Positions 6,273 through 30,449 of a DNA stretch of 35,719 nt are shown here, in pieces. The translations under genes were made by a program, and so were the position numbers. The stretch lies in assembly GCA_021432655.1 (NCBI GenBank), contig MU271648.1, positions 1-35,719 on the forward strand, written 5' to 3'. This stretch comes from Atractiella rhizophila (lineage: Eukaryota). The stretch's first letter is position 1. Every line of letters starts with the position of its first letter. The notes under the pieces are model-generated. The model worked only from the letters and a program-made list of their open reading frames with translations. It was not told the origin of the DNA and ran no database searches.

Positions 6273-6791
6273 TCACTGCCCTCCTATTTGCTCTTGTACG
6301 AGCTATCAAAGCAATAATGTTAGTATTCGCTGCAGAATATAACACTGGAGCCGGTGACCTACATCGACCTGGTCCTCGCTCTCCATTCCTAACTTCACAA
6401 TATCGTTCAATGAACTATAACTATACCCACGTAACGAGAAAGAGCATACAGATTCTGGTGTGTCGGAGTCTAATATCCGCCTCCCATCGTAGAGAAGGTG
6501 AAAAGACTTCTTTTCTACACCTTTCTTGGTCACAAGTGCGGCGTGGACCTTTCCTAACTGCTCGATATGAACTAAGTCTCAAAGTACTGCCAGAGGAGAG
6601 AAGACGCGCAGTAGACGTTGCCTTGAGTTGAAATGAGTGTTCTTCTCCATTCACCTCTTTCACAGTGATTGTGACCTTTCTAACAATTGGTCTCTCGTTC
6701 TCAAGCCAGAGGAAGTGAGGCGGCACACCTTATTCACTTCCGGCTTCACGTCTGGTTTTTTCTCCTTGCTAGTGCTCCCCTCATGCGACAT
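6273..6791 (-). CDS. Divergent SUMO paralog (SUMO-like ubiquitin-fold modifier), 98 aa, 5 exons
   Basis: Exons 6791-6729, 6675-6610, 6557-6450, 6392-6363, 6302-6273 give MSHEGSTSKEKKPDVKPEVNK-VTITVKEVNGEEHSFQLKATST-LGKVHAALVTKKGVEKKSFHLLYDGRRILDSDTPES-LGMESEDQVD-LVQEQIGGQ*. SUMO hallmarks LYDGxR, DTPxxLxME and EQIGG are present. Introns are 52-60 nt, and intron 2 needs a GC donor. Confidence 0.88.
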
Positions 6792-7027
6792 TTCTCAACC
6801 CAAATAATGTGCCAACACCTCCTCAATGTGTGATCTTCAGCCCAAATGGACCTTCCAGTGGAACGATGGATATTGGATATAATCCCAGAAACGTCCACAA
6901 CAACGGTTGGATTAAATAGGGTTAGGGACGAATCGCGCAAGAGAAAAGCAACCACGACGTTCGACGTTCGACTCGCGAAACGCGCGTTTAGCTAAGACCT
7001 TAACGATATTTAAGAGGAAAGTGCAAG
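6792..7027. promoter_or_regulatory. Putative bidirectional promoter shared by the two SUMO genes
   Basis: 236 bp between divergent ATGs. Contains tandem ACGTTCG repeats (~6956-6970), CGCGAAA (6974-6980) and the perfect palindrome AAACGCGCGTTT (6978-6989). Confidence 0.55.
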
Positions 7028-7666
7028 ATGTCGGACGCTGAACAAGCTGCCCCTGCTACCCAGGCGAAGCCAGAGACCGAACATATCAATGTGTGTTGTT
7101 TCCCAAGCTATTGTGAATCAGTCTCTCCTGGGATTGAGGCGTGATTTTGCTGTTGGCCATTCGTCCCACTCTGTTAGCACATGAGTGCAGCTTTATTCAT
7201 ATCTGAATTGCCAGAGAGGGACTGCAGCGCTGATTACATAGAGCATTAGATTAAAGTAACAGACCAGTCTGGAGCAGAAGTTTTTTTCAAGATCAAGACG
7301 ACTACGAAGCTCGGCAAGCTAATGGATGCATATGCTGATCGGTGCGCCGTCCTGTTTTGCTTCTTATGGGCGGGAGGCTGATTGGTTTGGCCGCGTCAGG
7401 CAAGGAAAACAAAGGGAGCACGTCAGATTCTTGTACGATGGACAGAGGGTAGGAGCGGAGGATACTCCGGCAAAGGTACGAATTCCATTCATTTCTAGAT
7501 GCAGCGGCTGAGAGTGTTGGATAGTTGGAGATGGAAGATAACGACCAAATTGAAGTACAGATCGAACAGGTTCGGCTTCCTTCCCATCTTGCTATCCTCC
7601 CAGTCCTTCCTTTGAGAGATTTCAACATTGATGTGCTCTAATTGGATACAGGTTGGAGGTCGCTGA
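7028..7666 (+). CDS. SMT3: Small ubiquitin-like modifier SUMO (Smt3), 96 aa, 5 exons
   Basis: Exons 7028-7090, 7250-7341, 7400-7475, 7525-7569, 7652-7666 give [96 protein letters not shown]. Canonical AKPE..HINIKV, EVFFKIK, RFLYDG and GG+tail motifs. Confidence 0.96.
7119..7224 (+). other. Long-range inverted repeat (RNA stem) inside SMT3 intron 1
   Basis: CAGTCTCTCCTGG (7119-7131) pairs with CCAGAGAGGGACTG (7211-7224): 13 bp with one G-U pair and one bulged A, ending just upstream of the GCTGAT branch-point-like motif. Confidence 0.6.
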
Positions 7667-9643
7667 CTGCCCCTTGCGGCTCCCACCTCTCCTGTCACCA
7701 CGTGCCGTATTCTCCTGCTCTTAGTGATTCGATCTTGTGTTGTGAATGATAAGATAAATAAAGTGTCGTTAATCATTTCATATCATTGTACTAACCCGAA
7801 CTCCACTTAAGGAGGCCGACTGGTTAAATTTTGGCATAGATTAAGACCCCCTGGTATAAAAGCTCGAACGGGCTTCATATTCCTTTGCATGTAAGCCCCT
7901 AATGGCGAATCATGCACATCCTGTGTACCAGAGAGTGTCTGTATCTCGCCGTTTTAAATCACCGTCTCCAAATCACTCATGACTGCATCATTCATCCCAT
8001 TTGATTCTTCAGTGGATCCGTTATTCCATACCAAATCTTTTTTCTCGCAGTGTATGAAAATATAAATCAAGTTCTTACCCATAGATCAATTATCAAATTC
8101 TATGGCTCCTGATTGCCAAACGGGACCACTGCAGTTATCAATTGTCAATGCCTTATTTGGTCCACGTCCCCTAGTGTCTCCTCGATCTGAATGGAATTTC
8201 AGAATATGCTTATCACAGCTGCATTGGTGTGATGAATTGGTGTGATGGGTTTCGATTATTACTTAGATTCGACTCCTGGTTTCACGCATTTAACTCTCTT
8301 CAAATCCTACTTTGTTGCCATCGTGTCCTGGAAGGAAAAAGGCTCTCTGGGCTTTATACTAGTACTGACCAGGTCTTCTTGCTCTATGAGGGATGGATGG
8401 CAAATAGTTGGAAGAACAATTGCTCTGTGGCAAACCGTGACGGTCTGGATGGACCAAGTGTGAGGGTGGAAAGTGAGCGCCGTGAACGTGAAAACTTTCA
8501 ACATTGAAAATTCTTCAACATCTTGAACTAGATTGACGAATCTGACTCGCAGTTGAGCTCTAACGTTGAGCTTATTTGTTCTTCTTGAAAGTACAGGGCG
8601 CAGCAGCCCAGTCTGACATAAAATGGATAAGGCAAAATTCTAACGCGACTTCTCCATTTGGATGGGACTTAGAGAGGGCAATAGTGGAGCGCTTACAACT
8701 AGGGGATTGGTGGAATTACCTTTGCTCTGTCAGCTTGAGAAAGAAATGATTGAAGAAGCGAGTTCGTGTCAACATGTAAAATGATGCAGTTGCTTCAAAA
8801 CAAATGAAGAGTTGAAGTGAAGAGGAATCACATCGACTCATCATGCTGAAACAGCGCTCTTCAATATTAGCCTTTGGCATTATATAGTATTATGAAATGT
8901 TTGATTATCGATAATTGATGTTAGATAATAAATGCATTTTAGGCTAAAAGTACCCATCATATAAAATTTGATTCGAAACATGTTAGGAGTGGCGGTCGGA
9001 TAAATGTAAGGTTTAGCGCCTTCGCCGGATCGGTTCTTTGTCGACGTTCCACCAACCTCACAACATTTCGCACAGCTCCACCTGCCAGAAAGCCTTTCCT
9101 CGATGTCCAACACGCCCTCAGGGACCCCAGGTCCAGCTGTCGAGCCGCCGTTTGCGTACGTGACGAGGAATGGACCCACATTTTTGGCGCAGAAGGGGAT
9201 CACTGTTAAGAATAATGACAGGCTGAGGAGACTGAGGAGGGATGTCAGAATGTCAGCTATCAGCCAATGGTGTCACTTCTTTGGGGACTTTATTGGTCTA
9301 CCAGAGTTCGATGTAGAGGTATGTAGCATTCTGAGACCTGGCGAAGGCGGGAGAGGGTGTTGTTTTGGTGTTGCATTTAGAACGAAAAACCTATCTTCCA
9401 TGCTATCGGAGGGATTCCGCTCCTTTTATTTCGTTATTATGTGGATACGCGTAAAGGTTGCGCGAAGAAATGAGTAACCGAAAGGAGATGGCAGAGTTCC
9501 GAAATTTCGGGTGGAGGAGAAGGTGGTGGTATGGTTGACCTCGAACTCGGCAATCGATTCGGATTTTACGTACCTCGCCCGTTCCCTCACACCCTCAAAT
9601 TTATTTTTCCGGTTTTCTTTCGCGTTCCTACTACTCTGATTGA

Positions 9644-12600
9644 ATGGTGGACCTGCGAGAATGCTGGCGTACGTTAGGAAGAGTTCTGCATTGCACTTCT
9701 ACCCTTTATTCCTCCGCTGTCCTGACATAGCTATCCTTAGTGTTACTTCAATGGCAGTCTTTACACTTTCTGAAATTCTTCCCCTATTGTTACAACGGCA
9801 AATGTTATGCTTCCCCATTCCCTAGTCCGCATTTTTCTTGAACGCGTCCACCCGACAACGCGTACAGTTTCGCCGGGAATCGGGGCTTCCGCTGCCTCCA
9901 TCATCAGTCTGCTGATTCCCCTGCATTTGCTTCGAAAGGTTTTGGTACTTACACGTTCTATTTCCGCGTGTCTGGTAAAGATAGCTGTTTGCATGCGTAA
10001 CATTGTGAAGTGGCAGTGGCAATATTTGCACATTTCTCTTTGAATAGAAGTTTGTCATTATCGGCGTGTTGTTATCTCGCCAATGAGCGTTCTCGACCTA
10101 TAAGTTTACTAACTGTCGCCATTCCAGAAACTTGAATACGACCTTTGTATCTCTGTTCCGCAGGAGCAATCGACAGTGAAGGATTCATCTCCTGAGAAAG
10201 AAGGCATAGCGAACGAGTCGAGGGCAGCGGATGGAAAGCCGTCTAACATCGGTCACCCCACGCCTCCCAGCTCGGATGATGCTCAACAAGACAAAGAAGG
10301 CAGGGCAGTCCAATTAGCTCCCAAGGCTTCCGCTCTTACGACCAGCGTTTCCTCAGCTCCCATGAGCATCGCCGTCGCTGGATTTACGGCGTTCCAGTCT
10401 CCTTCGATGAACCTGCTCACGGAGCCAAACCCTGCTCTTCCAACTCCGACACCTACCAATCCTCTACGCGGGGGCTCAGATCCGAAGGAAGAAGACGATG
10501 AGGAAGACGGTGAAGAAGACGATGAGGACAAAAGAGTCCCCCCTCCTCTCATTTATATCCCTACGATAGTTTCTCGACTTTTGGTCGCTGTGAGCACAGA
10601 TCGTACCGTCAAGTTCGTTTCCTCATACATTGCCTCCGAAAACTTGTACTTACGAGGTTTCAGGGAAAACAACTGGGAGGTCAAACTTCGCCGGCAATTC
10701 TGGAAAAAGTCTGAGTACCTCAGGTTACGCCAGAGTCCATTGGGCCAAGAACCAAACCTTAAGTATCCGAACGAGCCAGTCCTCCCTCGAGTGCATTGGG
10801 AAGATATGGATCTGGACGACCAAGTCTACGTCTTGCATACAATCTGCGAATGGCAGTTCCTCTGGAGCGCTGACAGATGGAGGAGTCAGTTGATGAAGAA
10901 CGCAGATGAAGGTGCTGCTTGGGTTTGTCTGCATTTCCCACCGTAAAATAGCAAGTTGACACAATTTCTTCGGCACAGCGTTTGGAATTCATTGGTCTCG
11001 ATGGCAGCGATAACAAATATTGGTTTTTTGACGATAACCGGCTCTGGATTCAACGAAATACTCCTGCGGAGGCCATAAAAGCGCGCGCTCGATGGGCCAA
11101 AGAACTTTCAAAGGCTCCAACTGAAAAGGGAACTCGATCTCGCCCTTCGCGTGCTATCGCAGCACTAGAGCAAGACAGCCCTGGACCGGCTATCAACGGA
11201 AGGGGGAAGAAGAGGAAGAGAATAGAAGAAGAGCCTCCTAGTGATCATTCCGATACGGAAAATGGTATCGAAACTGAGGATGGTGGAAGAGCTTCGAGAT
11301 CCAAATCTAAAGGTGGGAGGGGGAGAGGGAGGGGAAAAGGCGGCGTGGGAAGGAGGAGCTCACTGAGGGGTAAGCCTGCTGAAGAAACACCCGAGGTGGA
11401 GGATGAAGATGTTGAAGATGGCGCGGAAGGGACCTCCAAACCGACGACCAAGCCCCGAGCCCGCGGAAAGGGAAGTCGAAGGGGAAAAGGCAAGGGTAAA
11501 GGACGTGCCAAAGGTCGCGCGTCCAAGGTTCAAAAAGTAGAGGACGACAAGAGCCAGGAGGAAGAGGAGGCTGAGGAGCTGGAAGCTGAGGTTGAAGAAG
11601 AAGCGGAGGTGGAAGACCTCCTCGCTAGTCCCAAGACAAAGGTCGACGGAAGCGATGAGCCAGAAAAGGTCGATGACCAGTTTTCGAAAGGACGAAGAAC
11701 GCGATCTTCTAACAGGCTGAGTACCCTCGTGACTACGGCTGACAAAGTATGTGGCGGTTATTTCTTAGAGCCAAGTTCAGCGGGAAACGCGGCGTCGCTG
11801 ACCCTTTTATGTTTGAACAGAAACCGGGATCCGAACGCAAGGCCGGACGTAAAGGCGCACGGCCGCAATCGCCCGAAAACTCTCTTTCCCCTCTCAGTTC
11901 TGTTGATAACGATCGCGATGGAGGATTGGACAAGGATCAAGATGGAGATATCGACATGGGGGATCGACAGAATAAAGACATCAAGGAAGAGGAGATTGAG
12001 GTCGACATCCCACCTCTTGACATGGATAATGTGGCGTGGACGGAGTGGGAATGCGTTCGTGGATTGTTACTCCCTCACTTCGATACTCAGAGCATTTGTG
12101 GATAGATTTGCACCATCATACCGGAATGGAGAGCTTTTGCTGACGCCTTTTCGACATCCAACAACCCGGAGGAACTTAAACTTAGCCATTACATCCATGA
12201 CGAAGTCATTCCAGCTTTGATGAGGGAGTATAAAGTATGCGAGAGCCCCCTGGTTCCCACTCTGTTTGATATGCTGACATGCGTGAAATAGGAAAAGGAG
12301 CAAAAGAGGATGAAAGAAGAGGCCAAAATCGAGGCTCAAAATGCGGCTCGTAAACGGTCCACTCGGCTAGCGACGCGAGAGGCGGAGAAGGAGGAGGCAG
12401 CGCGTGCCAAAGCATTGCAGGACGACGATTCCCGCGCTAGTCGACTCGAGAAACGCAAAGCCGCAGAGGAAGCCAAACTTGCGGCTGAGGAAGAACGAAA
12501 GGCTAGACTTGCCGATCGGGAAGCAAGATTCCGTGCCCGTGAAGAAGCAGCTAGACTCCGCGCTGAGGGTCTTGATCCATCCGAGGCTCTCAAGGTATTG

Positions 12601-15405
12601 GAAGGAAATCCGGATTTGTCGCCGCAGAAACGAAAGAGGACAAGATATGCAGAAACCGATGCGATGACTGATGACGAAGAGAAAAGTGACGGCCCAAAAA
12701 GGAAGAAAAAGAAGGCAGAATCGAGCGATGAGGAATATGATCCTGATGAGGACAGTGAAGCTTCGACGGAGAAAGATGAGCCGGACTCGTGGTACTTGAA
12801 CTGCGAGGTGAGCATGTGCTCGATTGATTGTGCATTACTTATCGAGGTGCCACAGCATTGCGGGAAATCTGGCTTGGACGTGGTATGTCAAGTTGTTGAA
12901 AACTCACTCTGTTCTCAGCCTTACCTACGAATTAGGATGACGGCCATAAACTGGTGTGCTGCGATCAATGCGAGGAATGGTTAGTCCGAATTCAGAACCA
13001 ACATTACAAATTGTCATTGACGATGTTGTTGCAGGGTACATCTCAAGTGCCTAGCCAAAGCCGATAGGGAAGCTGGCCGGCCTGAGAAGGACTATCAAGA
13101 AGAAGACTTTCTTTGCGGACGTTGTCAGCGTGATCCTTCCCGAAGGAAACAAGAGCACACCTCCGGCAACTGGTCAGACGATGAATATGACGGTGGGGAT
13201 GGGACCACGAAGCGAAGACGAAACCGATCGCCACCGAAAGCTGCAAACGCCCGTTCTCGGGCTCCAGTAAAACATACTCAGAGCTCCCCTGCAATTCCTT
13301 CTGGTTCTTCCTTGACCCCCAAAGCCAAAGCTCCAACAGGGTTCTCGTCTCTTCATACTACTCCAAACCGTGCTCCTGCCCAGTCACCCGCTTATCGCTC
13401 GCAGACCATTGCTGGGATGCCCCCGAGCCCAGTGCAGGCTGGGACTCCGTTCCGCTCTGGCCCTCTTCGACCCCCTGGAACGCCAGCGCAACATTCTCTT
13501 TGGGGAGGCCCCGATCACAACACCGATCCTTACCCATACATCACTGTTTGGCACCAGCTTGTAAACGATCCGTCTTTGATGCACCGACTTCCTCCTGTTT
13601 TCCAAAACCACTTCGGTCAGCTTCTAGGCAAGATAGCCCCTCCACCCATCGATATTTATTGTAACATTGCCAACATGATCCGCAACGATATGACTGGAAC
13701 ACGCGTCGAACATCTCCCTCAACAGTTCCAGCCCTTTTTCCGGCCGTATGTTGTTCCTCTTCATGTCCGACAGGCTGCCACTCGTCAGGCGATGCTCGGC
13801 GGTTCTGGGGCTGCGACGACGCCGGAACAACAGCAGAAGTTGGCTCTTCTGATGCGACAGCAGCAGAATTTTACGCCAAACCGTCCATCTCCTTTGGGAC
13901 TAGGTGCCCAATCGTCGCCAAACTTCAGCGCTATGTTGGGCGGTCTAGGATTGGCGCTAGGAGGGAACGGTAGTAGCACCGCTCCTTCCGCTGGTATGCT
14001 GAGCAGTGTCCCACCCACAACCAACACGGTTCCTCCTGTCTCATCCCTCACCGGGACGGCATCATCATTCATCTCCTCTTTGGGCTCACCTCCGTCTATA
14101 ACCTCAATGATGGGAGCGGGAAATCCGGCTGTTTTCTCGCCGATGTCCCCGAGCATGTCCGTGACACCAGATTCCGCTGCCCTACTTTCGTCAATACCCA
14201 ACACGTCACCCGCCGTTGGAAGCCATACCACTCAGTCAGCTCCTACACTTCCTATTCTAGGAGTCACGTCTTCAGAGACTCCTGCGTCCATCACTACGGC
14301 AGGCGGCTCCAATGTAATTGTTCCGACGATGGGGACTGTTGCTCCCACAATCAATCCTCCAGTCGCTCACGGCTTTCCCAATGTCACACCTCTTCCCTCA
14401 GTTTCTGGCATGATCAATACCTCGAATGCTTTCCAATTCGCCCCAACGAACGGTACAATCACTACGGGAAGTCCTGCCCAAGGAATTCCTGCTTCCAATC
14501 CGTTGCAGAACATGATCGGTGGGATCGGCGGAGGGTCCCTGAACGGATATGGTAGCTTTGGAGCTGTCGGCGGATTTCCCGGTGTAGGAATGGGTGGGAT
14601 AGGAAGCATGGGAAATTTGAACACCATACCTGGCCTGGGGAGTGTACCTATGGCTGGATCTGTGAACAGCATGCATGGATGGGTAGGTATGGGTGGATTC
14701 AATGGAATGGGAGCAGTTGGAGGAATGGGAATGACAGGAAGCGTGAGCGGATTCGGTGGCATGGGGGGTGGCTTCAATTTCTTTCAGTCCACTGGCACTT
14801 CCACACCGGCTATAACCCTCGGAGCAACCGTTCCTCAAGCTTCTACATCCCCCTCGCTTCTGGGCCTTCACACTGCCCCAGTTCCAGCCATTGTCACAAC
14901 TCCACCGTCACCCCATGACATTCCACCTGCCGCCAGCGCACTACCGAGCGTGGCCAACATCCCTCAAGGTTTGGCCACGCATGGAAACACCGAACCCACA
15001 GGATCAGCCATAACATCTTCGCTAATGCACACCGCAGGAGTCACAGCTGTTCCTTCGTCGTACCCACCTACATCCGTTCCCACCACCACTGAAGCAACAC
15101 CTAATCTCCCAGCCACGGAAGGTTCAATACCATCCTTTTCTCCCATGCATATCGCGGTTCCAGTCCCTGTTGCCGCTGAATCGACGAAAGAAGTTTTACA
15201 AACGTCCTCCGAAACACCCATGGCGCCACCGTCCATAGCTCACGGCACTGATCAATCACCCCAGGCCCCTGCTCCCCCACAAGAAGTTGCCATAGCCATC
15301 ACAACTTCCTCATCAAATGGCGGAGCCACTGAGATCATCGGCTCCTTTGCTGGGATGGATACTGGAGCTTCAGTGCCAGATCCGACCAGCCTTCAGACGA
15401 CATGA
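9644..15405 (+). CDS. DDT/WHIM1/WSD + PHD-finger protein (RSF1-like putative ISWI chromatin-remodeller accessory subunit), multi-exon
   Basis: WHIM1-like WEDMDLDDQVYVLHTICEWQ, WHIM2-like WRLEFIGLDGSDNKYWFFDDNRLW and WHIM3-like EWECICTIIPEWRAF..LSHYIHDEVIP. The spliced PHD reads CEHCGKSG..LVCCDQCEEWVHLKC..FLCGRC and continues in frame into ORF 13312-15405. The 5' end (MVDLRECW at 9644 .. KLEYDL exon at 10128) is tentative. Confidence 0.8.
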
Positions 15406-18017: not shown

Positions 18018-18986
18018 GTGATATTTTTCCTCAGAGCAGATCTCAATAAGAGGGAGATTGAAGAGTTGGCGTTCTGTGATACGCTGTCAGCAATGGGTTT
18101 ACCTTTACTTAGATCTGATTTTCAACATGGATCATGGAAGTTCCTATCAGGGACAAATGAATTAAGAGGAGGATCTGGTCACTTAATTGTGTCATAGGAC
18201 CCCCCGAGTCGCGTAATTGAGAATCAAGTTCCAATGCCTCTGTGAGAGAAAATGAAGTGGGGAGGGAGCACTACTCTTCCTGAGTGTTGAAGTGCCCTCG
18301 TCGTAAAGGAGCGGGGCAGCTATAACGTACTGGACTACGAAATTTAACACTCAAATCCTACTACCGTCACCTGGCAAACTTGAATCAGCCTGGGCCACAG
18401 CAAAGCGAAATGCGCAGAATGATCGTAGCATGACCCAAGGCTGCAGAATAACCATTTCACGGAAGCAAATGTGCACCAAACAGAGGCCATGTTTCGAGAC
18501 CCATATTCACAGACTCTCTCCGGGAGGCCGCTTCATTTCGCCTTGATTTCCTTCGATAAAAGCCCAAGATTTGCTGCAATCTCTCGGCCCTCATATCAAC
18601 AGCGGGGATCACGCCTCTACGACAATAATCGCCTTTTAGTCGTAGACTCTCCACATCATCTGCCTCAACTAGGCGTCTCTCCTGCGACCTCCATCGCGCT
18701 CACTCTGCTTTAAACCATCACACGTTGACAGAGGTTCTCAGTCAGGTCCTCTGTCGCTTTGTTGGCACCTTGGGATCTTTCATCACGCTGGGTCGCATGC
18801 ACTCTCTCGTAGACTGGGTCCTTCTTGTCTCTGACCGAGACATACGATCTCTAGCAATGAAGCGGAGATCCAGTCGAGAACCCTTGGAGTCATTCATTTT
18901 TTATTGTTTGAGCAACACCGCGTTGCAGGGCATTTTCAGACTTTCACGTACACAGCTGGCAAACTTCCTTCAAATTTCATATTGAA

Positions 18987-20741
18987 TTATTCATCATATT
19001 TGATTCTCCGTTCGATTTGGTAACTAAAAAACTCCAATTCTTCAACCACGAATCTTGTCCCAAGTCTCTCTCTCAGGTTTTCATAGGCGGACCATTGCTT
19101 TTGGTTCAAGTTAAGTCTTGGAACTCTGCCAGATCGATACATACGTTGAAACTTGAGTCTCTCCAACTGATCTGTCCAAGCTGAACCAGAAAGGAACGTG
19201 ATTAATGGTGCAAATCCTCCGTTGCTGCCATAATCGAAAAAACAGAAGGGCCCTGACCAACTTGGCGCAAGATGAAGTCGGAAGTCGAGACGTTTGGCGG
19301 CACAGGAACCTTTGGTAAAAGGTAACGAATCAAAGTCGCTGCCTTCGCTACGTGAACGAGAGAAATCGCCTGAAAGGCGCATGTCCTGGATGCCAGGAAT
19401 AGTGTGACCTGAAGTGAGGAGAAAGTGCAACGCTTCAAAGGAACTCTCTAGGAAAATGTCGAGCATTTGAGGTTGCGAGATCTGGAGGAAAGATTTGAGC
19501 TCCGCTACAGAAACGAATGTGGTTAAATTCGTGTCAAGTCGCATGAGCTTGTGAGGATGCAAGACAGGATCGAAAACAGGTTTTATGAACTTGATCGACA
19601 GGTCTTCAGAATCAAAACAGATGCTCAATCTCTGCAGATGCTGAAAGTTGCATAGGAACTCTTGAGCTCGTGCATCGTCTTCGTCCGACATTATTGGAAC
19701 ATCTTTCAGCTTCAATCTCACCAAACGTGATGACAGGCGCAGGTGTGGAAAGGAATCGACCAGGTTTCCTAAGAAGTCTGTGGAGAGTTTAAGCGTTTCC
19801 AAAAGAGGTAGAATCGGAGCGACGAGTTGATGTTCCTCATCATAGCGCACCACAATGCCTCTGCAATAACCATTCATATCTAACTCTCGGAGGGTATCCT
19901 TGACGAAGTGGAGGAGCGGGAAAAATGCAGGCCAGAAACGAGGATATCTTTCGGTGTCAAACCTAACGGACCGGAAGGCTGTAAGAGACGTGAGAGTTCT
20001 TGCTGATGCTGAAAAGAAAGCTGTCTCGGAAGGACGAATGGCACTGATGACAAGGTCGTTGAGTGCAAAAGCAGCCGGAGAGGACTGCGATGCATGAACA
20101 TCTCGCAATTCAAGGTGTTTCAAAGCTTTGCAATCTTCTAACCCAGTAAACCAATCTTGAAGAACTGGGTTGGTCATACCCACGCTCGATCGAATCCAGA
20201 GTATCCTGAGATTTGGAGGTAATCGTAGTCGAGCCTCAGCCGACGGACATTTCCTCGGACCCTTCATCTCCCACAGCAGGATATCCATCGTTTCCAGTTG
20301 ACCGACCAGAGAGTTCAGAACTTCGCCCAAAACATCCCACAGACCCATCCAATTTGCTTCCCTAGCGAGTTCTCGCGATTCTCCGGGATAGTTAACGAAC
20401 AAATGCCTGACGTGAGAACATCGCGTCCTTGACTGGCGCATGAACAAAAGAATCCCCTCCATATTCGTCACAGAAAGTCTGAGTAACTTGTCAACAAAGG
20501 GGAGAGAGTGTGTGCTCCATTGTTTGCAAACTAGCGAGCAAGGTTGGATGTGGGCATTTGACAGCGTCGTAACCCAGATGGATGGCGTATCTTCATCCCC
20601 AGCATAGAGTCGCGGTTCGTCAATCCAATGATCAACAAGAATTTCGAAGATTTGGAGCAGCAATTCAACAGGGAGTGATCGAATGGTCGCCATCAGAGGT
20701 ATTGGTGTTGTCAACAAGTCTGAAGTGGAAGAGAGTGCCAT
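18987..20741 (-). CDS. F-box protein with LRR-like C-terminal region, intronless (~584 aa)
   Basis: IRSLPVELLLQIFEIL..CSLVCKQW F-box motif, followed by repeated LxxLxL segments (LETMDI, LRILWI, LKHLEL, LRELDM, LETLKL, LQRLSI). First ATG is at 20741. Confidence 0.85.
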   Translation of the reverse strand: MALSSTSDLLTTPIPLMATIRSLPVELLLQIFEILVDHWIDEPRLYAGDEDTPSIWVTTLSNAHIQPCSLVCKQWSTHSLPFVDKLLRLSVTNMEGILLFMRQSRTRCSHVRHLFVNYPGESRELAREANWMGLWDVLGEVLNSLVGQLETMDILLWEMKGPRKCPSAEARLRLPPNLRILWIRSSVGMTNPVLQDWFTGLEDCKALKHLELRDVHASQSSPAAFALNDLVISAIRPSETAFFSASARTLTSLTAFRSVRFDTERYPRFWPAFFPLLHFVKDTLRELDMNGYCRGIVVRYDEEHQLVAPILPLLETLKLSTDFLGNLVDSFPHLRLSSRLVRLKLKDVPIMSDEDDARAQEFLCNFQHLQRLSICFDSEDLSIKFIKPVFDPVLHPHKLMRLDTNLTTFVSVAELKSFLQISQPQMLDIFLESSFEALHFLLTSGHTIPGIQDMRLSGDFSRSRSEGSDFDSLPFTKGSCAAKRLDFRLHLAPSWSGPFCFFDYGSNGGFAPLITFLSGSAWTDQLERLKFQRMYRSGRVPRLNLNQKQWSAYENLRERLGTRFVVEELEFFSYQIERRIKYDE

Positions 20742-21085
20742 TAGTTCCGCACAAGTACGAGCACAGAAAAACACTAGTACCGGATGAGGGATGTTTCTAG
20801 CCTGCTCAAAGCTTCGAATGCTGAATTTTTCTTCTGATCCTGACGTGAGATCGTTGGATTCGTCGTCGTTTTAATCAACACTCGAATATAGGGTCACTGG
20901 TATGTTTTGCCGCCGCAACATTCATTTCATTACTCTTCCGTGACCATTTTACTTTTGCGAGAAGGACGACAGGAATCGGAGATGAAAGCGGCACTGTGCT
21001 TGCGGTGGACGTTATGACCAAGGTGGGAATGTTGGTTTTGTGCATTATTCTGACTTTGAGAATTTGGGAAAGCAAGGCGTTCCTG

Positions 21086-26256: not shown

Positions 26257-29200
26257 TTAAAAGAGGAACCGCCAGATGACCATATACCACGGTCGTTTCT
26301 TCTTCTCTTTCTCTTCGTCCTCCACCTGGAACTCAGCGGCCCCTGTATTAACTGTCCATACCGAAAGTTAGGGAGGGTCCGATGAGCCAACGAAATCAGG
26401 AGAGCTTACAGTCCATCTTCCGGTAAGGTATTACTCTTGTGTTGTAAGTAACCTTGTAGCCTATATAAAGAAAGACGAAGACTGGGATCGGAAGGTATGA
26501 TGTAACAAAGGTTGCTTGAGGAAAGGCAACAGACAGTTAGAGCCATTGACGGAGAGGTGCAGGCGACGTACGGGCATCAAATTGGCCTTTGACGAATACG
26601 ACCCATCCATTGAAGAAAGCGATGACGCTGCACCAGACTAGCGCGTACCAAGCAGCCTGAGGAGCCATTATTGACTTTGCGGATAAGGTAAAGGAAGGAG
26701 ACGCACGTAAGGTTGTAGTGGAGCGACGTAAGGGAAAGTGGTCTTCCTATTGATCTTCTGTTTCTTGCATCCGTAATACCACCTATCACAATTATCAGTA
26801 GGTGACGTAATCCAATAACAGAGGAGCTATCTCACCGCAGATAGGTGATGCAAATGCCGATCCAAGTCACGAGCCAACTAACACTGGCAATGTTGCCCAG
26901 GTACCCAAAAGTCTACGTCACACATTCGTCAACTTACCCTTAAGCTCAGAGGAAGAAAGACGCACATCTCCAGCCGCATCCGACCCGCTCCCAATGTACC
27001 CCAACGCTCCAAACGCAACGGCCACAATCAACGCTTTCCAGGGCAGACCGTACTTTGTCGTGTCGGAGAAGAAGCGTGGCGCGCTCCCGTTCAATCCCAT
27101 CCCAAAGAGCGCTCTGGAGGATACGAACATATAAGATGAGCCAGCGGACAGGGCGGAGGTGAGGATAGAGGCATTGATGACTCCTGGCAGCTATTCGTTC
27201 CTCATCAGGAACCCAGTGATACTGCATCAGAGGGAGTGGGGACGAACAGCTTTGATCCCTGCCCGGTCGATGGCAATGACCCAAGGAGAAGCAGCCGCGT
27301 TCCGATTCGCAGGGTCGCTGATGTTGTTCAATGCGGGATCGTTGGAAGCGACCAGGAGGCCGACGACGAACACTCCTCCTACGTAGAAGATGAGGACTCT
27401 CCAAAACACCGTCCTAATGGCTCTCGGTATGCTCTTTCGCGGGTCCTTCGTCTGTCCCCCGAACCCGAACACCGTCACATCAAGGTCAACCCATCTCCTT
27501 TAGGTAGGTAGGCAACAGGAAGGGATTTTGACCGACCTCAGCAGCAGCAATGGCGACGATCTCGGTACCAATGAATGCGAACGCGGCGTTGTTGAACACG
27601 CTATAAAACCCCAAGAAGCGACCAGTCGCTCCATCGATCCCCAGGAATTGAACGAGCGGTCCAGGGTCTCGCCAATATCGGAAGCCGATGGCATCCCCCT
27701 TAGGACCTCCACCTGCGTCGATGACGATGCCCACGATGACTATTCCGTGCGCGTCACTCAGTTGCGTTTTAAGATGGGAGAAGGGAGGACCCACTGAGAC
27801 CGACGATGGTCACGACCTTGATGGAAGCGAACCAGAACTCGACTTCTCCATATCCCTGCACACATTTCGTCACTCTCCGCACTCTCCTCAGGTGGCGAGA
27901 GGAAACTCACCCTTGCGCCGAAGAGGTTGATGCCAGTCAACAGGAAAAGTGTGAGTGTGATCCAAACCGCATTGGACACGCTGCTATTCCAGTACCGGAT
28001 AAGCTATTACCAACGGGCCACATCAGTCATCATTCATCATACAAGCGAAAGGTGTGAAAGAGACTCACGACGGCCGCTGCTGCCAGTTCGGTTGGGAGCA
28101 GAATAGCATATACTGCCCAATAGGCCTGGAAAGCGTCAGTCTTCTGATGCATGGGCAGATTAAAAGGTGAAAGCGCACCCAGCCCATAGCGAACGACAAC
28201 GCAGGATCCACAAATCTGCGACCTGTCCATTCATTCATACCATCAGTATCTCTTCTCCCCTATTACGGTGATCATGCGAAGGGGGACGCACTGAGGGAAA
28301 TGTGTCCGCCAGCAAGGGGCAGATGAGCAACCATTTCTCCGAGCTGTTCATCACACAATTTCACTTTTTGGAGCAGTAAAAGGAGGGAGACGCACGCTGA
28401 TGAGTACTGTCCAAGTGACGCTCCCAAAGATGGAATAGGCGAGGAGGACGCCGAGCGGTCCGCCGTTCTTCACTGTACAACACATCACATCTCAGTTCGT
28501 GTGGCTGGAGAGGAGAAGGAGGGACGAACGTGAGTTTGCGGTTCCTGTGGCGCTCGTCATGAGTTTGCTCTGCAGCCTACTGTAGTAGCAAGGAGGTGAG
28601 ACGTACCAACGAATAAGCCAGTTCCAATTACTCCACCTTCATTCAAGAGGAGTCAGTTTTCGTCGTGTATTGATAGGGAAAGCAGGGAAAGTAAGAGAAA
28701 GAAGAGACACACCAATACTCAACATAGTGACATGACGATTCTTCAATCCCCTCCTCAACCCTGTGCTTGTAGTCTTACTGACTTCCTCCGCATTCCACTC
28801 TTCCCTCCTGACTACTCCCTCGTCCTCGCTCTCCTCACTCTCATCCCCATCGATGGTCTCGCCCTCGGTGTTTCTCCGCGAAATCAACCCTTTCTCCTCC
28901 TCCTCCCTCCCATCCCTGAAAGCCCTAATGAACCCAGCCGCCTTTCCGAGGCCCAACTTCCTCGCCGCCCTCTTCACCGTCTTCCTGTGTCCACTGCCCT
29001 CGATCGCGCCACCCAACTCCCTCGAGCGCATAGCCGGCGTCGCAGCTCGGAGGGAAGGATCGTAAGACGAATACAGCGCCTCTCCCTCACCTCCCACACT
29101 CATCCCACTGCTCCTCCTCCCCACTCCCACCGCACTATCCGTCTCAGCGTAGCTCCGAACCGGTCCGTCGCTCGACGCTCGAAAGACCATGTTTGCGCCG

Positions 29201-29865
29201 GAATGGTCGGGCGAGAGCTCGGAGTACTCCCTCCTGAGCGGCGGCAGTTCGGGATAGCTCGCCTGGACGCGCAGATGGGGGACGTGCTGCTGTGGCGTGT
29301 TGGCGACATTCGACGGATTGTCGTATGTCGACCCGGGCGAGAAGGCGGGAGACGTGGCTGAATTCGGGTCGTAGTACTGGGCAGGGATGGGAGGCACGGG
29401 TGGGACGTCCCTTATGGAGGACTCGTACGAGGGAGTGGAGTAGTTGAACGCTCGTCCCCTCTCTGCGTCTCCGTTTCCCTGGGAGCTCGACGAGGCGGAG
29501 ATCGAAGCGGAGTACGGCGACGAGTCGGCGGAAGGGATGGGCGTGCGAAAAGCGTGCAGGACGGAGCGGGACTCATCCATGTCCTCTTCTATGTACGCCA
29601 AGCCAGGGGAGAAGGAGGAGTAGGCGGAGTGGGGGTTGGGCGAGAGGTGGGAGTGGGCGGAGGCGCTCGAGAGCGAGCCCGAGTGGGCGTGGGAGGGGAC
29701 ATAATGCGTGGGGTGTGGAGGGATCGAGGGAGAGAGCGAGTGCGCGGACGAGAGCGAGGGATGCGCGGAGGAGGGCAGGAAGGAGGGATGGTGCACTCCC
29801 GACGGGAAGGGGTTCGAGTACGACGAGAACTGGGAGCGACGTGACGAGTGGTCGTCGTTGTCCAT
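26257..29865 (-). CDS. Amino-acid permease, AAT/YAT family (APC superfamily), many exons, with long N-terminal extension
   Basis: LRRGLKNRHVTMLSIGGVIGTGLFVG, LGEMVAHLP, RFVDPALSFAMGW, YGEVEFWFASIKV, IGFRYWRDPG, GTEIVAIAAAETKDPRKSIP, SSRALFGMG, TKYGLP; ends YMVIWRFLF* at 26257. Introns are canonical GT-AG. Confidence 0.93.
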
Positions 29866-30449
29866 CTGCTATTACGTCAGAGCGATTCGAGGGAGAGTGG
29901 GAGTGTATGATACGCAGAGGGAGAGGAGGAGGAGAGGAGATGGAAGCGATGGAGAGGAAAAGAGTGAAGAGGGGCGGAAAGAGGAACTGCAAGCGGTGAA
30001 ACTCACAGCCTGCTCTCCGGTCGGCGATCGCCCGAACTCTATTTACCCCGCCCTTTCCAACTCCCCCGAACTCTCTAACTCTCTCGTAATCGTATTCGCC
30101 ACGTATTCGTTCATGGAACCCACAACATCCCCAAACCCTGTCTATTGCGCGCAAACCGAGGACTTGGGCGTATCAGCTCGGCTTCTAGGCGAACATTCGT
30201 CTCCCCATTCATCATACAGTGGGTCACGTTCCTCCTGTCGTGACGTGCAGAGTGATAGCTGTCTCCTGTCTCGAAGGCCGAACAGTATGAGTGTTATCAT
30301 GAAAGCCGTGTCACGCCAACGATTAACGATTAAAGTTGTCTCATCAACTTGCATTAATGACCGACCAATATTTCGTGCAATGTTACAGGAAGAACAAATC
30401 AATATAAACTTGTTCTAAGGAGGTTCATTGGTCCAGTAGACTCGGAATA

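Follow-up and report, generated by a model that had tools for sequence, protein, structure and literature searches.

The analysed window is a stretch of 35,719 nucleotides of the root-dwelling basidiomycete Atractiella rhizophila (contig MU271648.1, assembly GCA_021432655.1). It contains two five-exon genes of the SUMO fold placed head to head, with an ATG-to-ATG spacer of 236 bp. A sequence-only reading of this DNA had described two such genes diverging from a 236-bp spacer, and its coordinates proved exact. The + strand carries the canonical SMT3/SUMO gene, while the - strand encodes a diverged second protein, referred to below as the paralog. The features of the locus are:

6791 down to 6273, - strand: paralog coding sequence (exons 6791-6729, 6675-6610, 6557-6450, 6392-6363 and 6302-6273), 98 aa, ending in EQIGG-Q
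6729..6791, - strand: paralog exon 1 (M1-K21), flexible N-terminal tail with the lysine sites KKPD and VKPE
6676..6728, - strand: paralog intron 1, 53 nt, GT-AG, phase 0
6610..6675, - strand: paralog exon 2 (V22-T43), beta1-beta2 according to the model secondary structure, containing EHSFQLK
6558..6609, - strand: paralog intron 2, 52 nt, non-canonical GC-AG, phase 0, ACT|GCGCGT...CAG
6450..6557, - strand: paralog exon 3 (L44-S79), helix 1, HLLYDGRR and DTPES
6393..6449, - strand: paralog intron 3, 57 nt, GT-AG, phase 0
6363..6392, - strand: paralog exon 4 (L80-D89)
6303..6362, - strand: paralog intron 4, 60 nt, GTAGGT...TACTAAC...TAG
6273..6302, - strand: paralog exon 5 (L90-Q98 and stop), LVQEQIGG-Q
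6792..7027, no strand: spacer, 236 bp, with the two 5' UTRs and promoters presumed to be shared or to abut
7028-7666, + strand: canonical SMT3/SUMO coding sequence, 96 aa, ending in EQVGG-R
7028-7090, 7250-7341, 7400-7475, 7525-7569 and 7652-7666, + strand: canonical SMT3 exons, separated by four GT-AG introns

The spliced translations agree in every letter with P0001 (paralog) and P0151 (canonical). In the GenBank entries for A. rhizophila, the paralog is named 'ubiquitin-like protein' and P0151 'small ubiquitin-like modifier', so that annotation had not overlooked the gene, which the sequence-only reading had described as missed by the ORF track. A tblastn search with both proteins revealed no third SUMO-like gene in the window, the only other match being at 18615-18662 (E 0.31 and 2.9). 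No tandem repeats were found in the window.

The 98-aa frame of the paralog requires a GC donor at intron 2 (6609-6558), a point missed in the earlier reading. Other splice choices for this intron were considered: (i) a GT donor lying one base inside the codon that follows A44, which with the TTAG acceptor would make the intron 34 nt long and insert 5 residues, (ii) a GT donor within the Thr codon, which lacks an in-frame acceptor, and (iii) the donor AAG|GCAACG, which would delete 4 residues. All of these were absent from the transcript contigs.

Splicing was assessed using intron-less contigs from four public runs (X3, X9, X10 and X12), of which X9 is recorded as RNA and the other three were taken as RNA by guess; such contigs carry no strand, ends or level. 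The intron 1 junction of the paralog (6729>6675) was present in all four runs, with the joint at 6673>6727 (cut +2) and CT..AC on the + strand. The joint of the GC-AG intron 2 (6557>6610, 'CT..GC' on the + strand) was found in three of them (X3, X9 and X12), and the X10 contig stops at 6610, where a loose end of 14 letters matches the start of exon 3. Introns 3 and 4 were spliced in X3 and X9, the contigs of X10 and X12 not reaching the 3' half of the paralog. The intron 3 joint was seen directly in X9, and in X3 as a 58-nt skip plus one replaced letter (a synonymous Leu change), while the intron 4 joint (6302>6363) was present in both runs. The X3 contigs represent a close relative, 95-99% alike, with identical junctions; two differences are listed within or next to the paralog coding sequence, a synonymous change at L80 and the tail substitution H3Q.

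Transcript contigs span both the start and the stop of the paralog, and one X3 contig extends to 6208, in the 3' UTR. In the spacer, paralog contigs extend to 6847 and canonical contigs begin at 6955, so that at most 107 bp lie between the covered parts. For canonical SMT3, all four junctions were found in all four runs. Contig depths were 3.4-7.7 for the paralog and 9-15.6 for the canonical gene, values unsuitable for ranking expression. The paralog was seen in root metatranscriptomes. Every one of the four paralog junctions that had been proposed for checking in RNA was thus found, GC-AG included. On the - strand, A. rhizophila has a true second SUMO-family gene that is expressed. As had been claimed, it is real and intact, and its open frame is transcribed, with splicing at each of the four junctions predicted.

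The two proteins align locally without gaps, with 32 of 83 positions identical (38.6%), and in the core 29 of 74 positions are identical and 46 positive. The hand count made earlier had given 29/77 (38%). All motifs quoted at that time (LYDGRR, DTPESLGME, EQIGG followed by Q, VKPE, EHSFQLK, KVHAALVTK and HLLYDG) are present. Pfam assigned the paralog to ubiquitin (PF00240, 50.7 bits) and Rad60-SLD (PF11976, 49.6 bits), well beyond the respective cut-offs of 25.4 and 23.8 and far above chance (E-values 1.5e-13 and 3.4e-13). The best single-domain PDB sequence match was yeast Smt3 (56 bits, E 3.8e-14), and by bit scores the paralog is closer to SUMO than to ubiquitin or NEDD8, which places it in the SUMO/Rad60-SLD family. 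The C-terminus is also of SUMO type: in EQIGG-Q-stop, the di-glycine follows Q-x and precedes a short removable tail.

A model produced by AF2 from the paralog sequence alone was unusable (pLDDT 50.4), and a model based on a 79-sequence alignment was used instead; since this input alignment consists of SUMOs, the model leans to the SUMO fold. It reached a pLDDT of 80.4 (52-53 for residues 1-20 and 85-92 for the core), with the element order E-E-H-E-E-H-E, that is, a beta-grasp with a disordered N-terminal extension. The best Foldseek match had a TM of 0.93 by target and an rmsd of 1.1 A. Among the PDB matches listed through rank 50, every one was a SUMO or a SUMO fusion, the top ones (SUMO1, SUMO2, AtSUMO2 and Smt3) having TM values of 0.87-0.96 by target. 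Feature matches in the ESM Atlas were SUMO clusters (0.93-0.94). Pfam, the Smt3 match, the AF2 model and Foldseek thus all agree with the SUMO-type fold with a GG tail that had been read from the sequence.

Two related groups share parts of this profile. The SUMO-like domains of Rad60, Esc2 and NIP45 belong to the same Pfam family (PF11976), and one structural neighbour cluster in the ESM Atlas is named 'putative NFATC2-interacting protein'. These domains are internal or C-terminal in larger proteins and are not known to have a conjugatable GG, whereas the paralog is a stand-alone 98-aa ORF ending in GG and one further residue. Ubiquitin and NEDD8 have a core of ~76 aa, no N-terminal tail and high identity to ubiquitin. 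The paralog, in contrast, scores only ~12 bits per ubiquitin unit and has a 20-residue N-terminal tail and an EQIGG end.

In a 20-sequence SUMO alignment, the paralog keeps all seven invariant columns (F36, K39, K46, G68, Q94, G96 and G97) and seven of nine near-invariant ones. In the 79-sequence alignment, which is composed mostly of near-identical ascomycete sequences, it differs in 5 of the 12 near-invariant columns (D28E, K37Q, T42S, R63H and F64L); some of these positions may bear on E2 or protease contacts. D84S is a further departure from canonical fungal SUMO. At the SIM-groove positions, the paralog retains F36, K39 and K46 and has Q in place of K37 and S at position 35. Exon 3 aligns in register with SUMO1 residues 47-78, and the titles of PDB entries 6uyo and 6uyz identify K37 and K46 of SUMO1 as SIM-interface lysines. 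The proposed remodelling of the beta2/alpha1 SIM surface consequently holds only in part: K37Q, R63H and F64L are changes, but the family-invariant F36, K39 and K46 are retained.

The N-terminal tail of the paralog carries a psi-K-x-E/D candidate acceptor lysine, as in a chain-forming SUMO (SUMO2/3- or Smt3-like). VKPE at K16 is the only strict psi-K-x-E match in either protein, the canonical one having AKPE only. Because of this strict site in the paralog, the role of 'chain terminator' suggested earlier is a poor fit. The predicted mature proteins have a pI of 5.8 (paralog) and 4.8 (canonical).

The paralog is far more diverged than its neighbour. Median identity to 81 other single-domain SUMO-family proteins (up to 140 aa) was 32% for the paralog and 57% for the canonical protein, and its end branch was ~7-fold longer (1.46 vs 0.20). 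Identity between the two genes at third codon positions was 0.36, and blastn gave only chance matches of 8-14 nt. In 1000 simulations of neutral substitution run to an equal identity, the frame remained open in 34 and the seven invariant residues were kept in none. Judged against this simulation, the paralog is under constraint, as indicated by both its invariant residues and its open frame.

Relatives of the paralog were sought in several ways. A word search of 5.8 billion proteins, using the whole paralog and a partial 65-aa query (a contiguous window reference reading through intron 3), returned only the paralog itself. In an exhaustive HMMER search, no protein exceeding 51% identity to the paralog was present among the single-domain matches examined. 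Scanning metagenome contigs gave 465 stretches that fitted the pattern, but tblastn confirmed none of them. The word, HMMER and metagenome searches thus yielded no ortholog of the paralog in a second species, P0048, P0113, P0097, P0100 and P0118 being without species assignment. The suggestion that the paralog is lineage-specific fits these results, as no close relative was found elsewhere.

The paralog is probably an old local inverted duplicate of SMT3, kept under selection as a conjugatable second SUMO isoform. A local origin is supported by the adjacency of the genes, by the common position and phase of paralog intron 3, and by a clade of paralog and canonical protein that is not rejected. 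Against it, the free tree separates the two proteins, and only one of the four introns is co-positioned. It is improbable, although these last observations speak for it, that the paralog instead represents an ancient SUMO lineage, or was acquired by transfer, and came to lie beside SMT3 by chance, an alternative that concerns origin only. In the free tree the paralog falls outside the Dikarya SUMO clade (94/92), but it lies in an unresolved comb with long-branch warnings, and long branches are easily misplaced. Enforcing a clade of both proteins costs 16 log-likelihood units, and AU tests (p 0.071, near rejection, and 0.0996) do not reject it. Three of the four intron positions differ, and the best identity of the paralog is to P0048 (51% over 86 aa), exceeding the 38% to its neighbour. 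However, P0048 shares 55% identity with the canonical copy as well and so is simply near the family consensus. Chance placement of two SUMO genes 236 bp apart would moreover be very unlikely.

The divergence of the paralog could also be read as loss of function or of conjugation. A transcribed but functionless duplicate, decaying while still using the promoter region of SMT3, would explain the long branch, the weak non-canonical GC donor and the orthologues not found in the searches. This reading is highly unlikely: the frame is intact across five exons, without a single indel relative to SMT3 over 83 positions, all four introns are still spliced, and all seven invariant residues are kept, a set that survived in none of the neutral replicates, few of which even remained open. 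The third positions are saturated, which argues for long survival of the paralog. A non-conjugated SUMO-like regulator or decoy would act non-covalently, for example by occupying SIM readers, the Ubc9 backside or Ulp proteases, with the GG end a relic or serving binding only. R63H, F64L and K37Q, at positions almost fixed in SUMOs, and a divergence far greater than that of the canonical copy accord with such a role, but we regard it as unlikely. The paralog has retained E93-Q94-I95-G96-G97 with a single residue after it, as well as a consensus acceptor lysine, neither end nor lysine being needed by a pure decoy, and the joint retention of the invariant residues was likewise never reproduced by neutral simulation.

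Under the preferred reading, that of a duplicated and conjugatable isoform, an old local inverted duplication of SMT3 would have been followed by rapid evolution of one copy, with selection preserving both the SUMO fold and the signals for maturation and conjugation at the C-terminus. A Ulp-type protease would remove Q98 from the 98-aa precursor, and the exposed EQIGG end would be activated by the SUMO E1, handed to Ubc9 and joined to substrates, so that the protein would serve as a second SUMO isoform. K16 in VKPE would be a good chain acceptor. The changes on the beta2/helix-1 face (K37Q, S35 and L51), together with H63 and L64, would be expected to alter the choice of SIM-bearing readers and perhaps also E2-backside contacts. 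It is conceivable, although doubtful, that the pair forms a true two-SUMO system, with an origin separate from the animal and plant systems and driven by one 236-bp bidirectional promoter, in which the conserved SMT3, with its weak AKPE, is mainly a mono-modifier and the VKPE/Q37/H63/L64 neighbour builds chains with different SIM readers. A link of such a system to the root-endophytic habit might be proposed, since the paralog was seen in root material.

The paralog resembles canonical fungal SUMO (S. cerevisiae Smt3, P0151) in its ~100-aa precursor, disordered tail with lysine sites, beta-grasp core, EQIGG end with a short tail and Pfam assignment (PF11976/PF00240). It differs in its 38% identity to its neighbour, in K37Q, R63H, F64L and D84S, and in one GC-AG intron. 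Vertebrates (SUMO1 vs SUMO2/3) and plants (Arabidopsis SUM1/2/3/5) have multiple expressed GG-bearing SUMOs, whose isoforms differ in the chain-acceptor consensus and the SIM-binding face, in line with passages of PMC7691676 and PMC11986368. Compared with these systems, the Atractiella duplication is independent, belongs to Pucciniomycotina and is known here from sequence and transcripts, and it is the diverged copy, not the conserved one, that bears the strict psi-K-x-E.

That fungi have a single SUMO, which the sequence-only reading stated for model fungi, is a textbook simplification. Reviews of fungal sumoylation still give a single SUMO for fungi, as in a passage of PMC11986368, while the 2020 survey PMC7691676 (Table 1 and section 3.1) counts exceptions without following them up. 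These are two Smt3 homologues each in Trametes versicolor, Schizophyllum commune, Botrytis cinerea and Thielavia terrestris, and five in Rhizophagus irregularis. Several of these second copies are reported to lack GG, whereas the Atractiella paralog has retained it. Atractiellomycetes are absent from the sampling of the survey, and Puccinia graminis is listed with one copy. No functional characterisation of second fungal Smt3 homologues was found in the literature searched.

With the paralog, the known SUMO gene families gain one more member but no new kind of system; the gene is already in GenBank, and the picture of the SUMO pathway is unchanged. It provides a clear, expression-supported case of a second SUMO of a fungus in which all sequence hallmarks of conjugation are kept and part of the reader surface is changed. 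It also documents a GC-AG intron in a very short gene, whose 98-aa frame would be lost by an annotation pipeline accepting only GT-AG introns. The gene would offer a small, tractable system for studying how SUMO isoform specialisation begins.

A second, diverged SUMO gene lies beside canonical SMT3. The two genes are arranged head-to-head, with 236 bp between their divergent starts, and their spliced models are composed of the following exons:

7028-7090, 7250-7341, 7400-7475, 7525-7569 and 7652-7666, + strand, canonical SMT3
6791-6729, 6675-6610, 6557-6450, 6392-6363 and 6302-6273, - strand, paralog

The canonical gene, with GT-AG boundaries at all four introns, encodes a 96-aa product with the C-terminus EQVGG-R, and the paralog a 98-aa product ending in EQIGG-Q. 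The two proteins are identical at 32 of 83 positions in a gap-free alignment (folded core: 29/74 identical, 46/74 positive), and all the motifs quoted in the sequence-only reading were found in the sequences. The models are identical to two NCBI proteins of A. rhizophila (Basidiomycota, Pucciniomycotina, Atractiellomycetes), namely P0001 (paralog, 98 aa; 'ubiquitin-like protein [Atractiella rhizophila]') and P0151 (canonical; 'small ubiquitin-like modifier [Atractiella rhizophila]'). The gene, GC-AG intron included, is thus already part of the public annotation.

One search identified 24 public sequencing runs containing part of the window. Splicing was checked in Logan contigs, which give neither strand, transcript ends nor level, from four runs of four studies: X9, a root metatranscriptome according to its record, and X3, X10 and X12, which we presume to be RNA. 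Each of the four predicted paralog junctions was found as a joint in intron-less contigs of at least two of the four runs:

intron 1, - strand, joint in 4/4 runs
intron 2, - strand, joint in 3/4 runs, seen as 'CT..GC' on the + strand
intron 3, - strand, joint in 2/4 runs (exact in X9; one replaced letter, synonymous Leu, in X3)
intron 4, - strand, joint in 2/4 runs

All four SMT3 junctions were present in every one of the four runs. Since the introns are present in the window and absent from the contigs, the contigs stem from spliced RNA, and the observation of a second SUMO gene, made from sequence, is right and well supported. The paralog contigs span 6208 (3' UTR) to 6847 (5' UTR) and those of SMT3 start at 6955, leaving at most 107 bp between the covered parts. 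The X3 contigs, with the same splice pattern, are 95-99% alike to the window, which marks their source as another strain or a close relative; the listed differences within the paralog CDS or beside it comprise the tail change H3Q and a synonymous one at L80.

Intron 2 of the paralog (6609-6558, - strand, 52 nt) is a GC-AG intron with the donor GCGCGT, which the sequence-only reading had overlooked. No GT-AG alternative preserving the frame was found in the sequence, and the GC-AG joint is backed by the spliced contigs of three runs and by a matching loose end in the fourth, where an X10 contig ends at 6610 and its 14-letter overhang exactly matches the beginning of exon 3. A gene finder that accepts GT-AG introns only would return a broken frame for this 98-codon gene.

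Two further observations concern SMT3. An X3 contig (155 nt, depth 2.7) covering 7107-7261 runs unspliced from intron 1 into exon 2, and is a retained intron, pre-mRNA or DNA carry-over. In the 3' UTR, X3, X10 and X12 (3/4 runs) differ from the window by an extra C behind 7669 and G>T at 7694, a common allele or strain difference.

The paralog exceeded the cut-offs of two Pfam families by a wide margin, ubiquitin with 50.7 bits and Rad60-SLD with 49.6 bits. Its top single-domain sequence match in the PDB was yeast Smt3 (56 bits, E 3.8e-14), with SUMO1 and SUMO2 next; poly-ubiquitin chains lead that ranking only through nine summed units of ~12 bits each. A single-sequence AF2 model was unusable (pLDDT 50.4). 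With the 79-sequence alignment (pLDDT 80.4), residues 1-20 were predicted to form a disordered tail and the core a beta-grasp fold, and among the Foldseek PDB matches listed through rank 50 all were SUMOs or SUMO fusions (best TM 0.93 by target, rmsd 1.1 A for the model), a result favoured by an input alignment made of SUMOs. The ESM Atlas agrees with the SUMO assignment. Exon 3 is in register with SUMO1 residues 47-78, so paralog numbering equals human SUMO1 numbering.

Compared with an alignment of 20 SUMO sequences, the paralog retains all seven invariant columns (F36, K39, K46, G68, Q94, G96, G97) and 7/9 near-invariant ones (departures F64L and D84S; R63 is H). In the 79-sequence alignment, mostly of near-identical ascomycete sequences, it departs at 5/12 near-invariant columns (D28E, K37Q, T42S, R63H, F64L). 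Neutral substitution, simulated from the canonical CDS until the paralog's level of identity was reached, left an open frame in 34 of 1000 runs, a count that indels, left out here, would push lower still, and no run kept all seven invariant residues.

Only 36% of third codon positions are identical between the two genes and DNA similarity is gone, which indicates an old split. Identity to other fungal SUMOs ranges from 55 to 63% (median 57%) for the canonical protein; for the paralog the median is 32%, computed on the same set of 81 single-domain proteins. A maximum-likelihood tree was computed for 36 single-domain proteins with a GG end (85-125 aa, chosen from 223 collected). In it the canonical protein joins the Puccinia SUMOs (84/71) within a fungal clade (94/92); the paralog, with an end branch of 1.46 compared to 0.20, falls in an unresolved comb. 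Constraining it to the canonical protein, or to this plus Puccinia, cost ~16 log-likelihood units, and neither constraint was rejected (AU p 0.071 and 0.0996, respectively). Intron 3 alone has a position and phase common to both genes; the two intron 1 positions lie two codons apart when the proteins are aligned gap-free, and those of introns 2 and 4 do not match either. The simplest origin would be an old local inverted duplication, given that the genes are neighbours of one family and have intron 3 in common.

A word-indexed search of 5.8 billion proteins returned no match save the paralog itself. An exhaustive HMMER search of 1.84 billion representatives yielded 1664 matches at E <= 0.001, with multi-SUMO repeat proteins on top; the best single-domain matches (P0048, P0113 and P0097; 46-51% identical) resemble either ordinary SUMOs or ones that diverged independently. 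A metagenome search did not find the locus. The protein and metagenome collections searched thus held no close orthologue, which does not imply uniqueness to the genus. According to a 2020 survey, Puccinia graminis has one Smt3 homologue and R. irregularis five, T. versicolor, S. commune, B. cinerea and T. terrestris have two each, and some of the second copies are missing the di-glycine (PMC7691676). A full-text literature search found no functional characterisation of any second fungal SUMO and, in the text excerpts it returned, no mention of SUMO in Atractiella.

Elsewhere in the window, 21 stop-to-stop ORFs of 130-794 aa (e.g. 13021-15402, 18990-20870, 10952-12217, 28642-29868) gave no Pfam match at E <= 0.001, although short domain exons may escape in such unspliced frames; Pfam-free long ORFs over 35 kb are unusual for a fungal genome. 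The 794-residue frame at 13021-15402 (+) opens with a Cys-rich segment (CCRVHLKC...CGRCQ), which could be a zinc-finger remnant, and continues into long low-complexity Gly/Met/Ser stretches; overall it is very rich in S, T, P and G. GC peaks locally at 0.63 in 29001-30000 (0.41-0.56 elsewhere), where long frames overlap on both strands and the window scan found no tandem repeats.

The functional interpretation in the sequence-only reading was reasonable, but exceeds the data in places. Its proposed 'chain terminator' role is unlikely: the paralog carries a strict acceptor site, VKPE at K16, whereas its canonical neighbour has AKPE only and no strict site, and the N-terminal tail of the Puccinia graminis SUMO is without lysine. 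The three Puccinia SUMOs nearest to the canonical protein (P0152, P0153, P0156) have no lysine in the tail before beta1 and 13-23 residues after GG, which suggests that the rust-fungus SUMO lineage may have unusual chain and maturation properties. The reader surface is remodelled in part: K37 is replaced by Q and position 35 is S, but F36, K39 and K46 are unchanged. PDB entry titles (K37- and K46-acetylated SUMO1 with SIM peptides) identify both lysines as SIM-interface residues, and Q37 may imitate a neutralised lysine. The mature paralog is less acidic than the canonical protein (pI 5.8 compared to 4.8). The near-universal R-F is replaced by H63 and L64, and this region of SUMO1 contacts the Ubc9 backside and the proteases.

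The gene is an apparently lineage-restricted SUMO paralog, new but already annotated. With its core intact, its C-terminal tail retained (E93-Q94-I95-G96-G97 plus one residue) and an acceptor site at K16, the 98-aa precursor would probably be trimmed, activated and conjugated as SUMO is, and could be extended into chains.
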